Shown one piece after another: positions 1-23,523 of a DNA stretch of 64,000 bases. The notes beneath the pieces are model-generated. The model searched no databases. It saw only the letters and a list, made by a program, of their open reading frames with translations, and was not told where the DNA came from. The stretch spans positions 64,001 to 128,000 of the forward strand of contig JANNXA010000034.1 in NCBI GenBank assembly GCA_031409275.1, given 5' to 3'. Both the position numbers and the translations under genes were made by a program. The stretch comes from Planctomycetota bacterium. Its GTDB lineage: Bacteria > Planctomycetota > B15-G4 > SIAN01. The stretch's first letter is position 1. Every line of letters starts with the position of its first letter.

Positions 1-1983
1 CTGGTCGTCGAGCTTCAGGAAGATCTTGTCCTTCTCGAATCCGGAGAAGGAGAAGCCGTCCCCGAAGATCTGGCCCATGTGCTTGTTGGTGTAGCTGCTG
101 TCGTTCACCTTCTGCGTGCCGAACTCGTCCCGAGCATCGAGAGTGGACGCCACCACGTGGCGCCAGTACGTGCTTCAGGTGTCTTTCAAACTGTTCCCGG
201 AGATGAATCCGTTCGCGCACGCGAGGTCGAGGTCGCCATCGAGGTCGAGGTCGAGGAACTGCGGTGCCCAGGCCCACGCGGCTCCGACGCCGCCGAACTT
301 CGAGGAGACCGTCGTGAACTTGCCGTCCTGGAATTGGAACAGCGTGTTGCCGGCCGCGAGCTTCTTCAGCGTCTTCTCGCGCTGATCGCTCGTGTCGCTC
401 TTCACCAGCCGCGAGAGGATGCGGTTGCCGGCGCTCGACGACATGTTCGAGGCGTAGAGATCGATGTCGCCGTCGGCGTCGTAGTCGCCGAAGCAGCAAC
501 CCATCCCGTTGCCGACGTCGACGACGCCGACTTCCGTGGCGATGTCGGTGAACTTGAGTGCGCCGTCGTTGCGCCAGAACTCCTTCACGCCGTAGTCGTT
601 GGCGACGAAGAGATCCTGATCGCCGTCCTCGTCGAAATCGTGCCAAGCCGCGGCATAGGTCCAGCGGTTGGCCGGGAAGCCCGCTTCGGCGCTGCGCTCG
701 CTGAACGTGCCGTCGCCGTTGTTGACGTAGAACGCGTTCTTGCTGCCGTTGTCGGCGGCGAACCACGAGTTGGGACCGGCGAAGCTGCCCTTCTGGTAGC
801 CGGGGATGAAGAGGTCGAGATCGCCGTCATTGTCGGCGTCGGCCGCGCACGGCGAGAAGCCTTGCAGCAGCTCGGTGAAGCCGGCGGCCGCGCTGACGTT
901 CACGTACTTGCCGCCCTCGTTGCGATAGAGCTGGGTCGGCCGACCGACTTTCTCGGCCCCCTCCATCCACCCCGAATGCGCGACCAGCAGGTCGAGGTCG
1001 TTGTCGTTGTCGTAGTCGAAGAAGATGGCACCGGTGCCGGCGGGCGGCTGTGCGACTCCGACCTTCGCGGCGACGTCTTCGAACGTGCCGTCGCCCTTGT
1101 TGCGGTACAGGAAATTCTCGTTCTGCGACGGGACGAAGAGGTCCCACAGGCCGTCCCGATCGAAGTCGGCGACGGCCGCGCCGTTCCAGAAGAACGACTT
1201 GTTGCCGTCCTTGCCGAACTGCGGGCCGCGATGGGCGATGCCTGCCGAGCGCGCAACCTCGGTGAAGATCGAGGCGGGCCGTTCGATGTCGGCGAGCGAG
1301 GTGACCGTCCACCGGTCGACCTGCCACTTGCCGGCGACCTTCTTGATGTGGACGCGGCCGAACTCCTCGCGACCCATGCGGCCTCCGCCCGACTTGCGCC
1401 CGATCACGTTCACGCGCACGGTCAGCGCGCCCTCGACCGGCGTCGACTCGGAGAACTCGGCGCCACGCACCTTCACGAAGAAGAACTCGATGGTGCCGAA
1501 CGGTGCGATGAACTCGCGCCAGCTCTCCAGGAAGCCGCTGCGGTTGACGACCGTGAGACCTGCCTTGGTGTCCCAGGTCGACTTCGTCACGTCGAGCGGG
1601 AACGATTTGCTCTCCGCCTTGCCGGGCTTCGCGAGGTCATGACCGACGAAGTCGGCGGTGAAGAGCCCCTTGGCGCCGTGGAAGTCGCGCAGGCGGATCT
1701 TGTCGCCCCACTCGACGAAGGTGTTGGCGACATCCTCGGAAAAATCTTCGACCTCTTCGAGCGACTTGAGTCGCGCTGCCGGATCCTCGATGGCCGGCAG
1801 CGTCGCCGGGAGCTGCGCAACCGCCACCTCGACTTCAGTGACGGGTGCCGGAGCTGCCGCGGTGGCGGCCCCTTCCGACGGCGGCGCCGGAGTCGGCGCC
1901 TCGTCGCTGCAGGCGGCGACGAGCAGCGCGCATGGCGCGGCCGCTCGTCGGACCCAATTCGCCGTTCGATTCCGAATCTGCAT
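1..1983 (-). CDS. ASPIC/UnbV (CRTAC1-like) FG-GAP/VCBS beta-propeller lipoprotein with an NTF2/SnoaL-like N-terminal region; probable selenoprotein (in-frame TGA at 175-177); 3' partial
   Basis: Lipobox ALLVAAC; repeated DxDxDGxxDL motifs. After ...ANGFISGNSLKDT-TGA the frame stays open to base 1 (STYWRHVVAST...GFSFSGFEKDKIFLKLDDQ), continuing the propeller blade. SECIS-like hairpin follows the TGA. Confidence 0.85.
142..174 (-). promoter_or_regulatory. Candidate bacterial SECIS element
   Basis: Minus strand: TGA-AGCACGTAC-TGG-CGCCAC-GTG-GTGGCG-T-CCA. 6-bp perfect stem plus 3 bp beyond a bulged U; G-first loop 18 nt after the UGA. Confidence 0.65.
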
Positions 1984-2264: not shown

Positions 2265-3545
2265 GTGACCGCCACCCGCCGCCTTTCGCCTCGCTCTCTC
2301 GTTGGCCCGCTCGCCGCCGCTGCCGCACTTGCCGGCTGCAGCGCGACGTTGCCCACCAATACCCGTGTTCCGATGCAGCCCGAGGAGGCCGGTGGCTACC
2401 GCGGCAATCCGACCAAGCCGTTCGGCTCGCTGTCGCAGGATCTGACCGCGGTCGACCTCGAACCGCAGGCGGATGGCCGCTACACGCTGCGCACCGCGCC
2501 GACGGCGGGCGCGCCGGAGTGGAAGGACCTCGACCTGCGCTGGTTCGTGCCGCGCATCCCGGCGCTCGCGAAGGGCAACGACACGTTGACCCGCGTCGCC
2601 CTGATGCAGCGCGAGTTCAACCGCAACGAGACGAAGTTCGGCGCGGTCGGCGACTACGCCGAGACGAAGATCGCCAACAACTGCCTGCGCGCCGGAATGT
2701 GGGAGGTCGTCCTCGAGAAGAAGAAGGAGGACGGCTCGATGGGCATGACCTATCACGGCTGGTTCGACTTCCCGCTCGACCACTACGCCGCGCTCTTCCA
2801 GCAGGCGAACGGGATGACGTTCGACGCCGCGCGCGAGCTCGTCATCGGCTACCCGGCGTTCGGCGGCTTCGCCTTCCCGCTCGATCAGCTGCGTACGGTG
2901 GAGCGCGAGCGCGTCGTCTCCGCCGCGCAGATCGACCGCCACGCCGCCGACAAGCTCGCCCGTCTGCCCGAGCAGACGCGCAAGGCGGCGCTGGTGCTGA
3001 CGCCTGGCATCGAGACCTACGGCGACTACAGCGATCCGGCGAAGCAGCCGATCCGTGTGGCCGAGTTCAGCGAGCCAGGCTTCTACAACCTCGACAAGCC
3101 GGTCGCGTTCGACTTGTCGTGGCTCGCGAAGCCCGAGTCGATCGCGTGGCGCGCGGTGAAGGGCGTGCAGGCTCCCATCGAGCTGAACGAGCTCGAGATC
3201 CGCTTCGCCGGCGGCCCGCGCATCGTCATCGGGGACGAGGGAATCGCCGCGCTGCCGGTCCGCGAGGCGGCACCGACCAAGGAGTCGGAGACGTTGCGAC
3301 TGACCTTCGGCATCGGCACGCCCGACATCTACGCGACGCTCGCCGAGCGAAAGGCGGAGTTCGAGGGCGGCCGCGCGAACTACCTGCTGCTGCTCGACGC
3401 GCACGGCCAGCACCTCGACAACCACCTTGGCGGTTGCGACCGCGTCTACCTGTGGCGCACCGCGGATGCGTTGCACGTCTACCTGATCGGCTACGAGCGC
3501 ATGACGATCGTGAGCCACCTCACGATCCCGTGGCAGCTGCCCTGA
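2265..3545 (+). CDS. Hypothetical lipoprotein
   Basis: 426-aa ORF with lipobox ALAGC and coding-like composition; no family recognised. Confidence 0.8.
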   Translation: MTATRRLSPRSLVGPLAAAAALAGCSATLPTNTRVPMQPEEAGGYRGNPTKPFGSLSQDLTAVDLEPQADGRYTLRTAPTAGAPEWKDLDLRWFVPRIPALAKGNDTLTRVALMQREFNRNETKFGAVGDYAETKIANNCLRAGMWEVVLEKKKEDGSMGMTYHGWFDFPLDHYAALFQQANGMTFDAARELVIGYPAFGGFAFPLDQLRTVERERVVSAAQIDRHAADKLARLPEQTRKAALVLTPGIETYGDYSDPAKQPIRVAEFSEPGFYNLDKPVAFDLSWLAKPESIAWRAVKGVQAPIELNELEIRFAGGPRIVIGDEGIAALPVREAAPTKESETLRLTFGIGTPDIYATLAERKAEFEGGRANYLLLLDAHGQHLDNHLGGCDRVYLWRTADALHVYLIGYERMTIVSHLTIPWQLP

Positions 3546-3756: not shown

Positions 3757-5043
3757 ATGATGCGGATCAAGGAAACGGCGACGCTCTGCGCGCTCTGCGC
3801 GCTCTGCGCGCTCTGCGCGCTGGCGTTGCCGGCGTCGGCGCAGTCGGAGCTCGACCTCAAACTGAAGAAGCTGAACGACGCCGCGCAGGCCGATCCGGGG
3901 CTTTCGGCCGACTTCAAGGCGGCCCTCGCGGACGTCGCGGGAACGCTCGGCAAGGCGCAGGGTGGTGGACTCGGTCCCTGGGTCGACAAACTCAAGTTCT
4001 ACGGCGACTTCCGCCTGCGCCACGAGACCGACTTCCACCTGGACGACCAGGAGAGCCGCAATCGCGAGCGACTCCGCTTCCGGGTGGGCGGCGACTACGC
4101 CGTGAACGACGAGATGAGCGTGGGCGCGCGGCTGGTCACTGGCAGCGCCACCGATGAGAACTCGCCGCACCAGAACCTCGGCGCGACGTTCGACAAGTTC
4201 TCGATCAGCCTCGATCGCGCCTTCGTGACCTGGAAGCCGGCGGCGATCGCCGGCACCTGGATCACGGGCGGCAAGTTCGGCCACCCGATCGAACGCAACC
4301 CTGTCTACGGCGAGCTCATCTGGGACGACGACGTGCAGCCGACCGGCATCGCGGCTGGCGGGACGCATGGCGCCTTCAAGTGGATGGCGGGCGAGTACCT
4401 GCTGCTCGACAACTCGAACAGCGGCACGCTCGAATCGGCCGCGGCCCTGGTCGCGCAGGCGAGCGCCACTGGCAAGCTGAACGACGCCAACAAGGTCACC
4501 GGCGCGCTGACCTTCTATCGCTACAGCCGGTTGAACCCCGATGACGTGAACGGCGGCCGCCTGTTCAGCGAGAACTTCGGCAACGTCGGCGTCGACACGA
4601 CGGGCGACGCCACGCTCGACGACTACCTGTCGCGCTTCACGATCTACAACCCGATGGTCGCGCTGGAGAACAACAGCTTCTCGCAGCCGTTGATCTTCGC
4701 AGCCGAGTACCTCCTGAACCCGCGCGCGAAGATCGACGCCGACTCGGGCTACTCCGTCGGCGTGAAGTGGGGCAAGAACAAGGCGAAGGGCGATTGGCAG
4801 GCCTACTACAACTGGCAGGCGATGGGCCAGGACGCGGTGCTGTCGAACTTCACCAACGACGACTTCCTGTTCGGCACCAACTACCGCGGCCACCTCGTCG
4901 GCGTGAAGTGGCAGTGCCTCGACAAGGCGGAACTCCACTTCTGGGGCTCGGCGATGCGCCGCTCGAACCTCGGCACGTCGGCAACCACCGACGACGACCA
5001 GCTGCAGATGCGCGCGCGGGTGGACCTCAACATCCGGTTCTGA
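3757..5043 (+). CDS. Putative outer-membrane porin (Porin_5-like)
   Basis: Signal peptide, 'KFYGDFRLRHE...RNRERLRFR' motif, amphipathic beta strands, C-terminal Phe. Confidence 0.8.
   Translation: MMRIKETATLCALCALCALCALALPASAQSELDLKLKKLNDAAQADPGLSADFKAALADVAGTLGKAQGGGLGPWVDKLKFYGDFRLRHETDFHLDDQESRNRERLRFRVGGDYAVNDEMSVGARLVTGSATDENSPHQNLGATFDKFSISLDRAFVTWKPAAIAGTWITGGKFGHPIERNPVYGELIWDDDVQPTGIAAGGTHGAFKWMAGEYLLLDNSNSGTLESAAALVAQASATGKLNDANKVTGALTFYRYSRLNPDDVNGGRLFSENFGNVGVDTTGDATLDDYLSRFTIYNPMVALENNSFSQPLIFAAEYLLNPRAKIDADSGYSVGVKWGKNKAKGDWQAYYNWQAMGQDAVLSNFTNDDFLFGTNYRGHLVGVKWQCLDKAELHFWGSAMRRSNLGTSATTDDDQLQMRARVDLNIRF
3782..3821 (+). repeat. 9-bp tandem repeat (CGCTCTGCG) x4.4 in the porin signal peptide
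   Basis: Read directly from the sequence; encodes LCA-LCA-LCA-LCA. Confidence 0.9.
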
Positions 5044-18781: not shown

Positions 18782-20596
18782 TCAGTGGGTGCCCTGGCCC
18801 TCGGTGACCACGTGCTCGCGGTCGAGCGCGAGGTCGGCGAAGCGCTCGCGCTTGCCCGACGGCCAGCGCACCTCGACGGTCGCCGTCGTCTCCGTGGTCG
18901 AGCCGAGCCCGAAGGTCGCCGCGATGTCGCATTGGCTCAGGTACGAGGAGCCGGTGCGCACGTCGCGACGCAGCGTCTTGCCGCCGGTGGTGAGCGTGAC
19001 CACGGCGCCGATGGCGTCGCGGTTCTTCCCGGTGCCGCGCGGGCGGATGCGCAGCCAGCGGTGCTTGAGCGCCTGGTCGTTGCGCATGACGATCGCGGCG
19101 CGGCCGTTCTGGGTCATGACGAAGTCGAGGTCGCCGTCACCGTCGAGGTCGCCGGAAGTGGCTCCGCGCGCGACGACCGGGCGGGTGAAGACCTCGCCCG
19201 ACTTCGCGCTGACGTCGGCGAAGGTGCCGTCGCCGCGGTTCCAGAACAGCTGGGTCGGCTGCTCGTAGGCGACGTCCTTCTGGACCGACTGGATCTCCGG
19301 CTCGATGTGACCGTTGCAGACGAGGATGTCGTGGCAGCCGTCGAGGTCGTAGTCGCAGAAGACGACGGCGAAGGTCAGCGAGAGGTTGGTCGGCGTGGCG
19401 ACGCGCGCGGCGCCGGCGCGATCGATGAAGAAGATCTTGTCGCCGGTCTGCGTGTACATCGCGATCGGCTCCTTCGAGAAGTTGCCGATCGAGATGACGA
19501 GCTTGCCGTCGTTGCACACGTCGCAGGCGTCGATGCCCATGCCCGCTCGTGCGCGGCCGATCTCGTCGAACGCGATGCCCGCCTCGTTGGCCATCTCGGA
19601 GTAGCGGCCGTCGGGCTGGCTCACGAAGAGGTAGTTCGGTTCGGTGTCGTTGCTGACCGCGAAGTCGGGGCGGCCATCGCCGTTCACGTCGGCGACGGCG
19701 ACGCCGAGCGCCTTGCTGTCCTTGCGCAGGATGCCGGCGCGCTCCGTGACGTCCTCGAAGGAGCCGTCACCCTTGCCGCGCCACAGGCGGCAGCTGTCCG
19801 CTTCGTACTTGGTGGGGATGGTGTAGGCCTTGACCGACCCCAGCATCTCGAGGACGTCGTTCTCGATCGACCAGTGCACGTAGCCGCAGACGAACAGGTC
19901 GAGCACGCCGTCGCAGTCGTAGTCGACCCACGCGGCGCTCGTCGACCAGGCCGGGTGCACGCGCCCCTGCTTGTCGGTCCAGGTCGTGGTCTTCAGGCCC
20001 GAAGCTTCGGTGACGTCGACGAACTTGCCGCCATCGTTGCGCAGCAGGTGGTTTGGCCCGAGCGCGGTGATGAAGAGGTCCGCGTCGCCATCGCCGTCGT
20101 AGTCGGCCGCCGTCGCGCCCATGCCGATCAGCGACAGGCCGCAGCCGGCGGCTTGCGTCACATCCTCGAACTTCATGCCGCCGAGGTTCTTGTAGAGCTT
20201 GCAGGTCGGCGCCGGGTCGCTCGCGTGGTCGGGCCACTCTGCGCCCTGCAGGAAGAAGAGGTCTTGCTTGCCATCGGCGTCGTAGTCGAGCATCGCGACG
20301 CCCGCGCCCATCGTCTCCGGCAGGTACTTCTTGCCGCGCGCGCCGCTCACGTGGGTGAAGGCGATGCCGGACGCCGCAGTGGCATCCGCGAAGGCAACGG
20401 CGGGCGCCGCTTTGCCGCCGGTGTCGCGCGGGTCGAACTTCTCCTTGGGAACGTAGGTCTCGGGCGCGATGGGCGTCACCACCTCGACCTTCTTCTCTTC
20501 GCCGCAGCCGGCAAGGAGAGCGACGGTGGCGAGCGAGCTCGCGCCGAGGGTGGTGAAGGTGACGAGTCGAGCGGGACGCGAGTGCGAGCGGGGCAT
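18782..20596 (-). CDS. ASPIC/UnbV (CRTAC1-like) FG-GAP beta-propeller lipoprotein
   Basis: Lipobox LLAGC, 'KYLPETMGAG', DxDxDG repeats, C-terminal ASPIC-UnbV region 'NRDAIGAVV...GSSYLSQ...FGLG...VRWPSG'. Confidence 0.9.
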   Translation of the reverse strand: MPRSHSRPARLVTFTTLGASSLATVALLAGCGEEKKVEVVTPIAPETYVPKEKFDPRDTGGKAAPAVAFADATAASGIAFTHVSGARGKKYLPETMGAGVAMLDYDADGKQDLFFLQGAEWPDHASDPAPTCKLYKNLGGMKFEDVTQAAGCGLSLIGMGATAADYDGDGDADLFITALGPNHLLRNDGGKFVDVTEASGLKTTTWTDKQGRVHPAWSTSAAWVDYDCDGVLDLFVCGYVHWSIENDVLEMLGSVKAYTIPTKYEADSCRLWRGKGDGSFEDVTERAGILRKDSKALGVAVADVNGDGRPDFAVSNDTEPNYLFVSQPDGRYSEMANEAGIAFDEIGRARAGMGIDACDVCNDGKLVISIGNFSKEPIAMYTQTGDKIFFIDRAGAARVATPTNLSLTFAVVFCDYDLDGCHDILVCNGHIEPEIQSVQKDVAYEQPTQLFWNRGDGTFADVSAKSGEVFTRPVVARGATSGDLDGDGDLDFVMTQNGRAAIVMRNDQALKHRWLRIRPRGTGKNRDAIGAVVTLTTGGKTLRRDVRTGSSYLSQCDIAATFGLGSTTETTATVEVRWPSGKRERFADLALDREHVVTEGQGTH

Positions 20597-20664
20597 GTCA
20601 GGTTCCGGAAGAGGAGGTCGTGAGAGAGGAGGTCGACCGGCCAGGCGGAGCGATGGCGCTCGAG

Positions 20665-23523
20665 TCACGAGCCGCCGGCCTTCGGCTTGGCCGGCAGCGG
20701 CGCGAGCTCATGCGCGTGCACGGTGTTCGTCTCGAGGTTGGCGTGCGGATCCTTGTGGCGGAAGTCGTTGGTGAGCGCCTGCGCCGACTCGTCGATCTGG
20801 TACTTCTCGTACGCCTTCGACGCCTCCTCCGCCTCGGCCGTGCGACCGAGCGCCTGCAGGTTCAGCATGCGGTGGTAGTGCGCCTCGCGGTCCTCGGGAT
20901 CGATGTCGAGCACCATCCCGTAGGCCTCGAGCGACTCGGGGAACTTCTGGTCGAGGTAGTACGTGCGGCCGAGCCGGCGCCACGTGTCGCGATCGGCGGG
21001 GAACTCCTGCAGCACGCGCTGGTACGCCTCGATCGCCTGCGCGTAGCGGCCATCTTCCTGCAGGCCGTTGCCCCAGACCCAGGCGGTCTGCGGATCGCCC
21101 GGCGCGAGCTCCTCGCACTTCGACAACAGCTCGAGCGCGCGCGCGATGCTGCCGTCGGTCAGCGCGTTGCGCGCCATGTTGCGGAAGCCGTCGACTTTCG
21201 CCGGCGCCACGCGCTGCACTTCGGCGAACCCGATCTCGGCGAGGCGCGTGTCGCCCTTCAGCATCATCGCGATGCCGTAGTCGTTGGGTCGGATCCACTG
21301 GTCGGGCGAGGCGTAGACGGCCGGCGGCGTCGGGTGCACCGTTTCGCCCATGGCGGCGACGCGCAGCGACACCTTGCTGCCGGCGATCTTGGTGACCGGG
21401 AGGTCGATCTTCTTGTCCGGGGTCTTCGCGAAGACGAAGTCGGTGTAGTGCTGCTTGAACTTGCGCCATTGGAGGTTCGCGGTGAGATCGAGCGTCGTGC
21501 CTGCCGCGCTCGCCGGCACCACGAACTGGTAGCGCACCACGTCGGACGTCGAGGGACCGATCACGTTGGCGTAGAGGCCGACGTGGAAGTCATGCGGATT
21601 GCGCAGCTTCGCCTCGGTCCCGTCGTGGGCGATGATCACCGCGCCGTAGCGATGCGCTGCCGGGTCGAGGTGCTGGTCGGGGCCGATCCAACCGCTGTGC
21701 AGCAGCTGGCCGCCGCCCTGCTGGTCGACCATGAACTCGAGGAAGCCTTCGTTGCTGTCGTTGGTGCCGCCCGGGAAGGTGTGTCCCACTCCCTTGTTGC
21801 GCACGACGACCTGCACTTCGATTCGCTCGCCCGGCACCAGGACCGGCTGGGTGCGATCGAGCGCGGTGACGACTTCGGTCTCGTTGCCCTGCGCGTCGAG
21901 GCGCCGCAGCGCGAAGACGTCGACGCGCATCTTCTCGTCCTGGAGGAAGTGCTCGATCCGCTGCAGCGTGTCGGTGTCGCCGCGCAGCGCCGGCAGCCCC
22001 GTGTTGGCCGCGAGGAAGCGGTGCGACTTGACCTTGCCGTCCTTCGAAGAGACGTCGCCGAGCGGCGCCTCCTCGAGCGGCATGTGGCAGTCCTGGCAGT
22101 TCTTCTTCACCGGAGCGCCGGTGACCGGATCGCGCGGTCGGTAGAAGGTGCGCGCGGCGTTCTGCGCCACGCCGCTGTCGTGCCAGTTGTCGTATTCGTT
22201 CTGTCCGCGGAACCAGCGGTACTTGTTGACCGGCACGTCGAGCGCGACCTTGTGGCACGTCGCGCAGAACTCGCTGGTCTTGAAGAACGGCTTCAGCATC
22301 CGTTCCTTGTGCACGTTCGGCTTCGCCTTGAGGACGATGTCGCCGATCGCGCGCAACGTCCCTTCGCTGGTGTCGTCGAAGAGGTAGGGCGACTCGCGGT
22401 CGTCGGGGATGTTGTAGGCGCCGTTGCCGGTCCGATTGTGCAGCGAGTCGATCGTGTGGCAGGCCAGGCAGGTGAGTCCTGCCTGCGCGTTGGGGCCGTC
22501 CGGATCGAATTCCTTGCCGATCTCGCCGGCCAGCATCAGTGCCGGCTCGTGGCAGCCCGAGCACCACTGCGACGGCTGCTTGCCGATGTCGGGCCGCTCG
22601 CGCATCGCGAGGAAGGACGCCCGATAGAACGGGTTGTTCATCGAGCTGAAGCGGTGCGCCGACTTGCTCCACTGCTCCACCACGTCGGGGTGGCAGCGCT
22701 GGCAGGTGACCGCGCCGATCTGGATGTCCTTCACGTAGCCGTACTTCGCGACCTCATCCTTCAATTGCGCCGCGTCGGGCAGCTCGCCGCGCGTGACGAC
22801 GGCCGACGCCATCCATTCGCCGGTCGCCGTGGTCGCCGGCGACGGGAAGAAGCGGCTGCTCGTGGGCACTTCGGTGAACGAGACGAAGGGGTGGAACGGG
22901 TCGATCGACGCGTCCTGCAGCAGCTCATCTTTCGGGACGGTGGCGAGCACGGTGCCGCGATCGATCGCGATGATGCGGTCGGAACGTTTGGGCAGCGTGA
23001 CCACATGGATGCCGAGCGCGAGGATGGCTGCGACGCAGGCACCGCCGATCGCCTTGCCGATCGAGCTCCAGGTCGGCGGCGTGACCGACGTCACGCGGTG
23101 GATGATGTAGACCAGCGGCAGCCCGACGCCGAGCCCGATGTGCGTCCAGTACTGCGGTTGGTTATCGCGGCTGTTGGCGGCCGTCATGATGAACAAGCCG
23201 CTCAGCATCAGGCCGACCATCGCGAGGATCAGCGAGACGCCGGTGCTGACGGCGACACCGTGGCGGCGCGCCCACGCGCGACCGAGGTGCCACACGGCGA
23301 AGATCAGCGCGCACGGGGTCAGCGCGATGCCGAGCAGCGTGTGGCCGAGCACCATCGACTGATAGAAGACGGGCAGCGTGTCGGGCGGCAGCCGGAACTG
23401 CTCGGTCGCTTCGGTCACGCGGAAGAGCAGCAGGAAGAGCGCGTTCGCGAGCATCGCGAGCCCGCCCCAGACGATGACCTTCAACAACACCCGCTGCGCG
23501 GGCGTCAGGATGCTCTGTCCCAT
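20665..23523 (-). CDS. Membrane-anchored pentaheme c-type cytochrome with C-terminal TPRs
   Basis: Five CxxCH motifs (CQRCH, CSGCH, CLACH, CATCH, CQDCH), about five N-terminal TM helices with His residues, TPR-like C-terminus. Confidence 0.9.
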   Translation of the reverse strand: MGQSILTPAQRVLLKVIVWGGLAMLANALFLLLFRVTEATEQFRLPPDTLPVFYQSMVLGHTLLGIALTPCALIFAVWHLGRAWARRHGVAVSTGVSLILAMVGLMLSGLFIMTAANSRDNQPQYWTHIGLGVGLPLVYIIHRVTSVTPPTWSSIGKAIGGACVAAILALGIHVVTLPKRSDRIIAIDRGTVLATVPKDELLQDASIDPFHPFVSFTEVPTSSRFFPSPATTATGEWMASAVVTRGELPDAAQLKDEVAKYGYVKDIQIGAVTCQRCHPDVVEQWSKSAHRFSSMNNPFYRASFLAMRERPDIGKQPSQWCSGCHEPALMLAGEIGKEFDPDGPNAQAGLTCLACHTIDSLHNRTGNGAYNIPDDRESPYLFDDTSEGTLRAIGDIVLKAKPNVHKERMLKPFFKTSEFCATCHKVALDVPVNKYRWFRGQNEYDNWHDSGVAQNAARTFYRPRDPVTGAPVKKNCQDCHMPLEEAPLGDVSSKDGKVKSHRFLAANTGLPALRGDTDTLQRIEHFLQDEKMRVDVFALRRLDAQGNETEVVTALDRTQPVLVPGERIEVQVVVRNKGVGHTFPGGTNDSNEGFLEFMVDQQGGGQLLHSGWIGPDQHLDPAAHRYGAVIIAHDGTEAKLRNPHDFHVGLYANVIGPSTSDVVRYQFVVPASAAGTTLDLTANLQWRKFKQHYTDFVFAKTPDKKIDLPVTKIAGSKVSLRVAAMGETVHPTPPAVYASPDQWIRPNDYGIAMMLKGDTRLAEIGFAEVQRVAPAKVDGFRNMARNALTDGSIARALELLSKCEELAPGDPQTAWVWGNGLQEDGRYAQAIEAYQRVLQEFPADRDTWRRLGRTYYLDQKFPESLEAYGMVLDIDPEDREAHYHRMLNLQALGRTAEAEEASKAYEKYQIDESAQALTNDFRHKDPHANLETNTVHAHELAPLPAKPKAGGS

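Follow-up and report, generated by a model that had tools for sequence, protein, structure and literature searches.

A 64,000-nt stretch of DNA (the window; G000:C34:64001-128000) was analysed, and it holds a minus-strand propeller gene interrupted by an in-frame UGA. Judged from its sequence, codon 603 of this gene is very likely decoded as selenocysteine (Sec), as the first-pass annotation had proposed. The Sec machinery of the host, conservation of the UGA, a covarying SECIS element and co-occurrence with Sec genes all agree with that assignment; the gene is real, and very likely it encodes a selenoprotein of a multi-phylum family. The fuller reading, to which we give a probability of about 60%, is that the gene encodes a Sec-containing, likely lipid-anchored and exported CRTAC1-type propeller of 962 residues, which would be a selenium-dependent oxidoreductase whose recycling is done by the thioredoxin fused to it. 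Its function is best hinted at by the C-terminal TlpA-like CxxC domain.

The minus-strand ORF from 1983 to 175 encodes 602 aa, with the C-terminal end ...NGFISGNSLKDT, followed by TGA 177-175. A frame open for 58 codons from this TGA to the window edge had been reported, and our reading-frame check gave the same result; on contig C34, read-through of TGA 175-177 adds 359 codons without a stop (those 58 included), so that the gene extends 906 nt beyond the edge to G000:C34:63095. If the TGA is Sec, the product has 962 aa and the two annotated fragments would be one protein. Past the window edge on C34, the propeller ends with its last blade, and UnbV_ASPIC and then a TlpA-like thioredoxin with CxxC follow. 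The ASPIC-UnbV tail that the first-pass annotation expected in the downstream contig is thus present, at residues 732-794 (Pfam). The features are as follows.

1..1983, minus strand: propeller gene, 5' two thirds of 962 codons (read-through product P0001)
1909..1983, minus strand: candidate lipoprotein signal peptide with lipobox L-V-A-A-C25, recognized by eye; its hydrophobic stretch is short
1279..1761, minus strand: N-terminal alpha+beta domain, residues about 75-235 (AlphaFold2 model)
1..1278, minus strand: CRTAC1-type FG-GAP beta-propeller, residues about 236-709, running past the edge (Pfam PF13517, E 3.5e-40; model versus 9etn_A)
352..435, minus strand: first of two helical insertions, a pair of helices at residues 517-544 that follows the conserved N-M-S-S-x-A-G-x-R; largely missing in the canonical paralog
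175..177, minus strand: in-frame UGA, codon 603, inferred Sec in the motif D-x-U-S-x-x-W-R (homolog alignment)
61..177, minus strand: second helical insertion, predicted Sec-capped helix 603-614 plus helix 629-641; missing in the canonical paralog (model)
144..165, minus strand: bSECIS-like hairpin whose core stem pairs 162-157 with 153-148 around a GUG loop (156-154) that starts 18 nt after the UGA
1..3 and beyond the window edge, minus strand: last blade, UnbV_ASPIC 732-794 and TlpA-like thioredoxin 826-943 (Pfam, fold match)

The Pfam scores were 136.8 bits for FG-GAP (cut-off 26.9) and 40.4 bits for UnbV_ASPIC (cut-off 23.4). The thioredoxin domain at 826-943, called as redoxin by Pfam, displays the motif W-A-T-Y-C863-K-S-C866 plus P930. 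No Pfam match at E<=1e-5 was found for the N-terminal domain, which appears NTF2/SnoaL-like when the predicted secondary structure is read. A simple lipobox pattern matched 22 of 59 database N-halves, some of which begin without a true start. The canonical paralog at 18782-20668 aligns at 100% HH probability, with its PTQLFWNR opposite KDKIFLKL, and is devoid of the UGA-carrying segment. Within window 18782-23523, minus strand, this canonical CRTAC1-like paralog immediately follows a gene for a 952-aa membrane protein that has several CxxCH motifs as well as TPR-like repeats.

All four of the Sec genes whose presence had been at issue were found in the host genome: selA (E 7.8e-123), the SelB wing (E 6.4e-17), tRNA-Sec (selC, 76 bits) and selD, the last itself carrying a TGA. 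Among 59 tRNAs, tRNA-Sec is the sole one with a UCA anticodon, and TGA is the main stop, ending 2119 of 2552 long ORFs. Global recoding of UGA, already considered unlikely in the first-pass annotation, was rejected because of this tRNA set and stop usage. Reading of UGA as Trp, Cys or Arg by a near-cognate tRNA or an alternative code is likewise highly improbable. Arg codons (CGG/CGC), one or two changes from TGA, do occupy 7 of 98 homologous sites, but Trp occupies none, the only UCA reader is tRNA-Sec, TGA ends most genes, and the hairpin, which matches the bSECIS model, disappears where the UGA does.

The same in-frame TGA was present in 4/4 other searched genomes of the genus (in G041, the paralog only) and in 8/8 metagenome loci. 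Exactly one TGA was found in 28 of 38 matches from 42 genomes of the class. Among 401 genomes of the phylum, 89 gave a match, and by hand count 123 of the 150 matches listed hold one TGA and 27 none, with 34 further matches lying outside those 150. From 201 genomes of Acidobacteriota (the phylum of G415), 36 matched, with exactly one TGA in 31 of 43 matches; the column position was confirmed as UGA in 16 of 24 parsed loci (1 of 25 unparsed). Neither TAA nor TAG was seen in the class, phylum (matches listed) and Acidobacteriota matches. Named TGA carriers come from three phyla, Planctomycetota, Verrucomicrobiota and Acidobacteriota, and the UGA is kept down to about 31% identity. At 98 distinct homologous sites in fetched loci, the column holds 66 TGA, 11 Cys, 7 Arg, 3 Glu, 3 Gln, 2 Ile, 2 Asn, 2 His, 1 Phe and 1 Asp, with no Trp, UAA or UAG among them; such counts overstate significance because related sequences share descent and are not independent. 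The terminal stops of the same 66 UGA genes are mixed (30 TGA, 19 TAG, 9 TAA, 8 run off), and GC bias therefore does not explain a pure TGA column.

This recurrence leaves a negligible chance that the TGA reflects faulty sequencing or that a pseudogene acquired it by a recent nonsense mutation. The assembly, in 55 contigs and 92.9% complete, might favour such a cause, but the same codon stands in the same column at 66 distinct sites in three phyla, with frames intact on both sides. Sequencing error in particular was ruled out by the genus genomes, the metagenome loci and the 66 distinct UGA sites. Contigs of runs X1 and X2, which may be the source of this DNA, are identical across the TGA site. 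None of the sequencing runs listed holds RNA, and no relative was found among viral contigs.

Could the UGA instead be a true conserved stop, with the 3' half forming a gene of its own that is coupled in translation and begins at the GTG 18 nt further on or at the ATG at 78? We rejected this explanation, which is very unlikely. The split falls inside one propeller and leaves a 3' half with no signal peptide, and unsplit homologs exist at 53-55% identity (P0002, P0003). It is true that gene callers split the gene here, as 59 of 120 protein-database matches end exactly before the column (NCBI names the half proteins 'VCBS repeat-containing protein'), that TGA is the main stop of the genome, and that GTG at +19 occurs in many homologs; still, the six codons between UGA and GTG change synonymously while their amino acids are conserved, TAA or TAG never stands at the column while terminal stops are mixed, and UGA forms are found only alongside Sec genes.

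Alternation of UGA with Cys, looked for as a mark of Sec, proved real but a minority pattern: Cys occupies 11 of the 32 non-UGA sites, all in one separate clade, and occurs besides in P0002, P0028 and P0036 among the full-length database matches, the others of which have D, H, S, E, A, R or N. The remaining 21 of the 32 carry R, E, Q, I, N, H, F or D, nearly all without hairpin and CxxC. Since most non-UGA relatives are non-Cys, the scaffold has a role needing neither selenium nor sulfur at the site. The Cys clade (L161-L169, L037, L070, L078) shows D-Y-C-T-x-F-W-x-H-D-I-Y and no thioredoxin; in several members another Cys precedes that of the site by four residues (C-x-D-Y-C), possibly an internal resolving Cys.

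Up to seven family matches occur in one genome (G214, among the matches listed). In the host itself, a second UGA paralog lies on the minus strand around G000:C14 295797, with D-L-U-S-F-W-W-R and a hairpin; 534 codons follow its UGA, including a thioredoxin motif W-C-C-R-C and then a TPR-like tail. A third paralog (L038; G000:C7:32303-32896) has Arg at the site and lacks both the in-register hairpin and the thioredoxin; it is likely a Sec-less derivative.

The SelB wing was detected in 289 of 401 phylum genomes. All 72 phylum genomes with a TGA among the matches listed carry Sec genes, 70 of them the SelB wing and 2 (G062, G279) selA and tRNA-Sec. Acidobacteriota genomes with a TGA gave 25/25, of which 24 have selA and the last (G499) selB and tRNA-Sec; in both phyla together, 97/97 genomes with a UGA among the matches listed hold Sec machinery genes. 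Neither selA, SelB wing nor tRNA-Sec scored over the cut-off in G149, G224 and G264, nor selA or SelB wing in G337, and the five homologs fetched from these four genomes are all Cys. In the Acidobacteriota G517, G582 and G618 none of selA, selB and tRNA-Sec was found, and the parsed loci carry Ala, Ser and Gly; absence of Sec genes from these seven genomes is unproven because they are incomplete drafts. At one locus (L206:4324-9337, G444:C1), a UGA family member precedes selA by 440 nt in the same orientation, the sole case noticed, and G017, G018, G019, G020, G021, G025 and G026 have two or three selB matches each.

The first-pass annotation had described a hairpin CGCCAC-GTG-GTGGCG 18 nt after the UGA. 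The hairpin is present and its G-first loop does start at 18 nt, but the stem starts at 12 nt (window 162-148). Locally the fold extends to 9 bp, and the UGA plus 37 nt folds at -13.2 kcal/mol. Like the bSECIS elements of the consensus model in the review PMC13188914, the hairpin has a 3-nt G-first loop 18 nt downstream, a stem of 6-9 bp and an energy below -7.5 kcal/mol, and it agrees with the constraints in the legend to Fig. 2A of that review. Hairpins of the kind defined there occur at 43 of 55 UGA sites (expected 14.2) versus 6 of 30 others (expected 5.9). When a 5-bp stem in fixed register was scored, it was intact at 46 of 55 dereplicated UGA sites versus 1 of 30 others, for which synonymous-codon resampling expects 2.7 and 0.7, respectively. 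Four of the nine UGA sites missing the stem read R-T/A-V-V-R, and there the stem appears shifted by one base. Independent Acidobacteriota loci gave an intact stem in 16/16 UGA versus 1/8 others (one locus unparsed).

Covariation, which had been suggested as a check of the element, was found at all 5 stem pairs: once near-duplicates and the four shifted rows had been removed, 38 of the 55 rows remained, and in these every pair shows two-sided changes and 94.7% of cells are paired, a level reached in 0 of 500 shuffles, with slid registers at 18-67%. Pair 18:28 alone has 21 two-sided changes, in which the silent third base of an Arg codon tracks the first base of a codon for Ala, Ser, Pro or Thr four codons on. 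As far as aligned sequences can tell, such tracking is beyond what protein constraint alone explains. A divergent Sec subfamily (L067 and L174), with D-L-U followed by L-V-I-E-x-V-G-R-R and without thioredoxin, has a different sequence, yet 5/5 pairs in the same stem register.

An AlphaFold2 model of residues 60-962 from a 49-row alignment (A4) reached pLDDT 93.7 and pTM 0.92. Its propeller plus ASPIC superimposed on murine CRTAC1 (9etn_A) with Z 42.4 and rmsd 2.5 over 456 aligned residues, and its thioredoxin domain matched ResA/TlpA/DsbE structures. Residue 603 had been placed in a plain propeller loop; this does not hold in the model, where it is the first residue of the inserted helix 603-614, so that Sec is predicted to cap a helix in a subfamily-specific insertion of the CRTAC1 fold. 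Residues D463, R521, W570, W607, E650 and R678 are invariant in 49/49 rows of A4. We infer that D463, N513, R521, W570, W572, D601, W607, R608, E650 and R678 line one substrate pocket with Sec. Of all Cys, C863 and C866 alone are kept in 22/22 UGA rows of A4, as is P930, and no propeller Cys is conserved in more than 11 of those 22 rows.

The presence of Sec and that of the thioredoxin are coupled, though not without exception. Of the UGA genes, 62 could be assessed (the locus ends too early for 4), and 59 of these have a CxxC 200-340 residues further on, versus 1 of 31 others, the latter split into 0/11 Cys and 1/20 assessable further genes; in Acidobacteriota it is present in 16/16 UGA versus 2/8 others. 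Among the non-Sec relatives, the long ones retain a thioredoxin-like sequence whose motif has decayed, and the short ones stop behind the ASPIC domain. In a quick maximum-likelihood tree (91 rows, site masked, midpoint root, 22 near-duplicate loci excluded), UGA forms occur all over the tree, non-Sec forms without CxxC make up at least 7 separate groups, and the D-Y-C clade (11 sites) is a distinct branch without thioredoxin. The exceptions to the coupling are Sec without thioredoxin in L067, L155 and L174; CxxC without Sec or Cys in the second copy of L172, P0063, L186 and L187; and Cys without CxxC in P0028 and P0036. Loss of CxxC together with Sec suggests that the two serve one shared cycle.

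Based on the sequence and the model, we consider a redox relay reasonably probable, in which the selenolate would reduce an oxidised extracytoplasmic substrate and C863/C866 would re-reduce Sec. SelB would bind the hairpin and insert Sec at 603, and the product would be exported and lipid-anchored. Outside the cytoplasm, the selenolate at the helix N-terminus would attack the oxidised substrate, for which a disulfide, a sulfoxide or a peroxide is a candidate. C863/C866 are proposed as the reductant of the oxidised Sec because the propeller has no conserved resolving Cys, and a DsbD/CcdA-type membrane protein would return the electrons; a DsbD_TM gene is encoded in the genome.

A less probable, though serious, alternative accepts Sec insertion but has the residue bind a metal or act as a covalent nucleophile within the pocket of the propeller, as in a lyase, a transferase or a metal/metalloid site, with the thioredoxin only protecting Sec or acting on other proteins. 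The pocket is indeed rich in conserved Asp, Arg, Trp and His609; an aldos-2-ulose dehydratase propeller, whose entry titles mention an active-site metal, matches with Z 28.4 and rmsd 3.0 over 347 aligned residues and gives a structural example of a related fold that supports catalysis; and a distant match (P0110) bears the name enediyne biosynthesis protein E4. In addition, some Sec or Cys forms have no thioredoxin. This alternative is weakened by the loss of CxxC together with Sec in most lineages, but a protective thioredoxin predicts the same co-loss, so that the relay and the guard role are only partly separated by it.

Compared with SelB/bSECIS selenoproteins (the E. coli fdhF paradigm), the present gene is alike in its in-frame UGA, its intra-ORF hairpin and the presence of selABCD, whereas its host fold is an FG-GAP propeller and its motif D-x-U-S-x-x-W-R has no Cys nearby. 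It shares with CRTAC1/ASPIC-UnbV proteins (murine CRTAC1, 9etn; PF13517 + PF07593) a D-x-D-x-D-G propeller followed by UnbV_ASPIC (phmmer E 2.2e-08), but has an N-terminal alpha+beta domain and a C-terminal CxxC thioredoxin in addition; in contrast to the canonical paralog of the window, it has two helical insertions, one carrying Sec. The thioredoxin resembles TlpA/ResA/DsbE in W-x-x-x-C-x-x-C-x-x-E plus the conserved Pro, with fold and sequence matches to 4nmu, 1jfu, 1st9 and 2b1k, but reaches none of the NCBIfam cut-offs for TlpA, DsbE and ResA (scores of 35.1 vs 230, 26.7 vs 123 and 26.6 vs 170 bits). Unlike in the listed redoxin and TlpA selenoproteins, Sec here lies outside the thioredoxin motif, and a second Sec within that motif was not seen in the family loci. 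Neisseria PilB, a TlpA-like domain joined to MsrA/MsrB, is a thioredoxin-fused repair enzyme. The likeness to PilB is one of logic only, the partner domain here being a propeller instead of Msr.

The first-pass annotation knew of no described ASPIC/UnbV selenoprotein family, and within their scope the catalogues searched contain none. In the 2026 review PMC13188914, Table 1, which by the review's text spans 119 families, names no FG-GAP, CRTAC1, ASPIC or UnbV family; the work of Haft and Tolstoy 2025 and of Haft and Gwadz 2023 is represented by its summary in that table. NCBIfam 20.0 gave four thioredoxin matches only, none near residue 603, and no selenoprotein model at the site. The family terms are absent from deep-Sep (PMC12013277, text and 4 supplements), from the accessible text and 1 supplement of BSepDB (PMC13326102), from SelCysML (PMC13745706, text and 2 supplements) and from the main text of PMC9402790 and PMC2398784. 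Titles and the beginnings of abstracts returned by literature searches mention no such propeller selenoprotein. The family could be among the unvalidated candidates of Deng 2026. The decoding is standard, the scaffold is absent from the catalogues searched, and the family is apparently uncatalogued.

We lean slightly towards viewing the exported CRTAC1-like propellers of Planctomycetota, Acidobacteriota and Verrucomicrobiota as one large, old clade that forms a self-recycling selenoenzyme class, in which the Sec-capped helix, set in a propeller-borne pocket, would do the chemistry and the thioredoxin would reload it, many Sec-less relatives having survived as pseudoenzymes. If true, this would place a selenoenzyme active site on a beta-propeller scaffold missing from those catalogues, often in several copies per genome. 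Very likely the gene adds a multi-phylum selenoprotein family that annotation splits in two. It also offers a handle on bacterial CRTAC1/ASPIC-UnbV proteins, namely a candidate catalytic residue, a pocket and a mutable built-in reductant, and the family may account for a major part of the selenium use of planctomycetes and acidobacteria.

Inspection of 41 neighbours at this locus and 14 related loci revealed no conserved partner beyond close kin and no hint of the substrate. On the plus strand of the window, a divergent 426-aa protein without a Pfam match is encoded at 2265-3545, and a Porin_5 gene lies at 3757-5043. The L051 homolog likewise has the porin gene beside it, and behind the homologs of L046, L047 and L051 lie PBP_like_2 genes.
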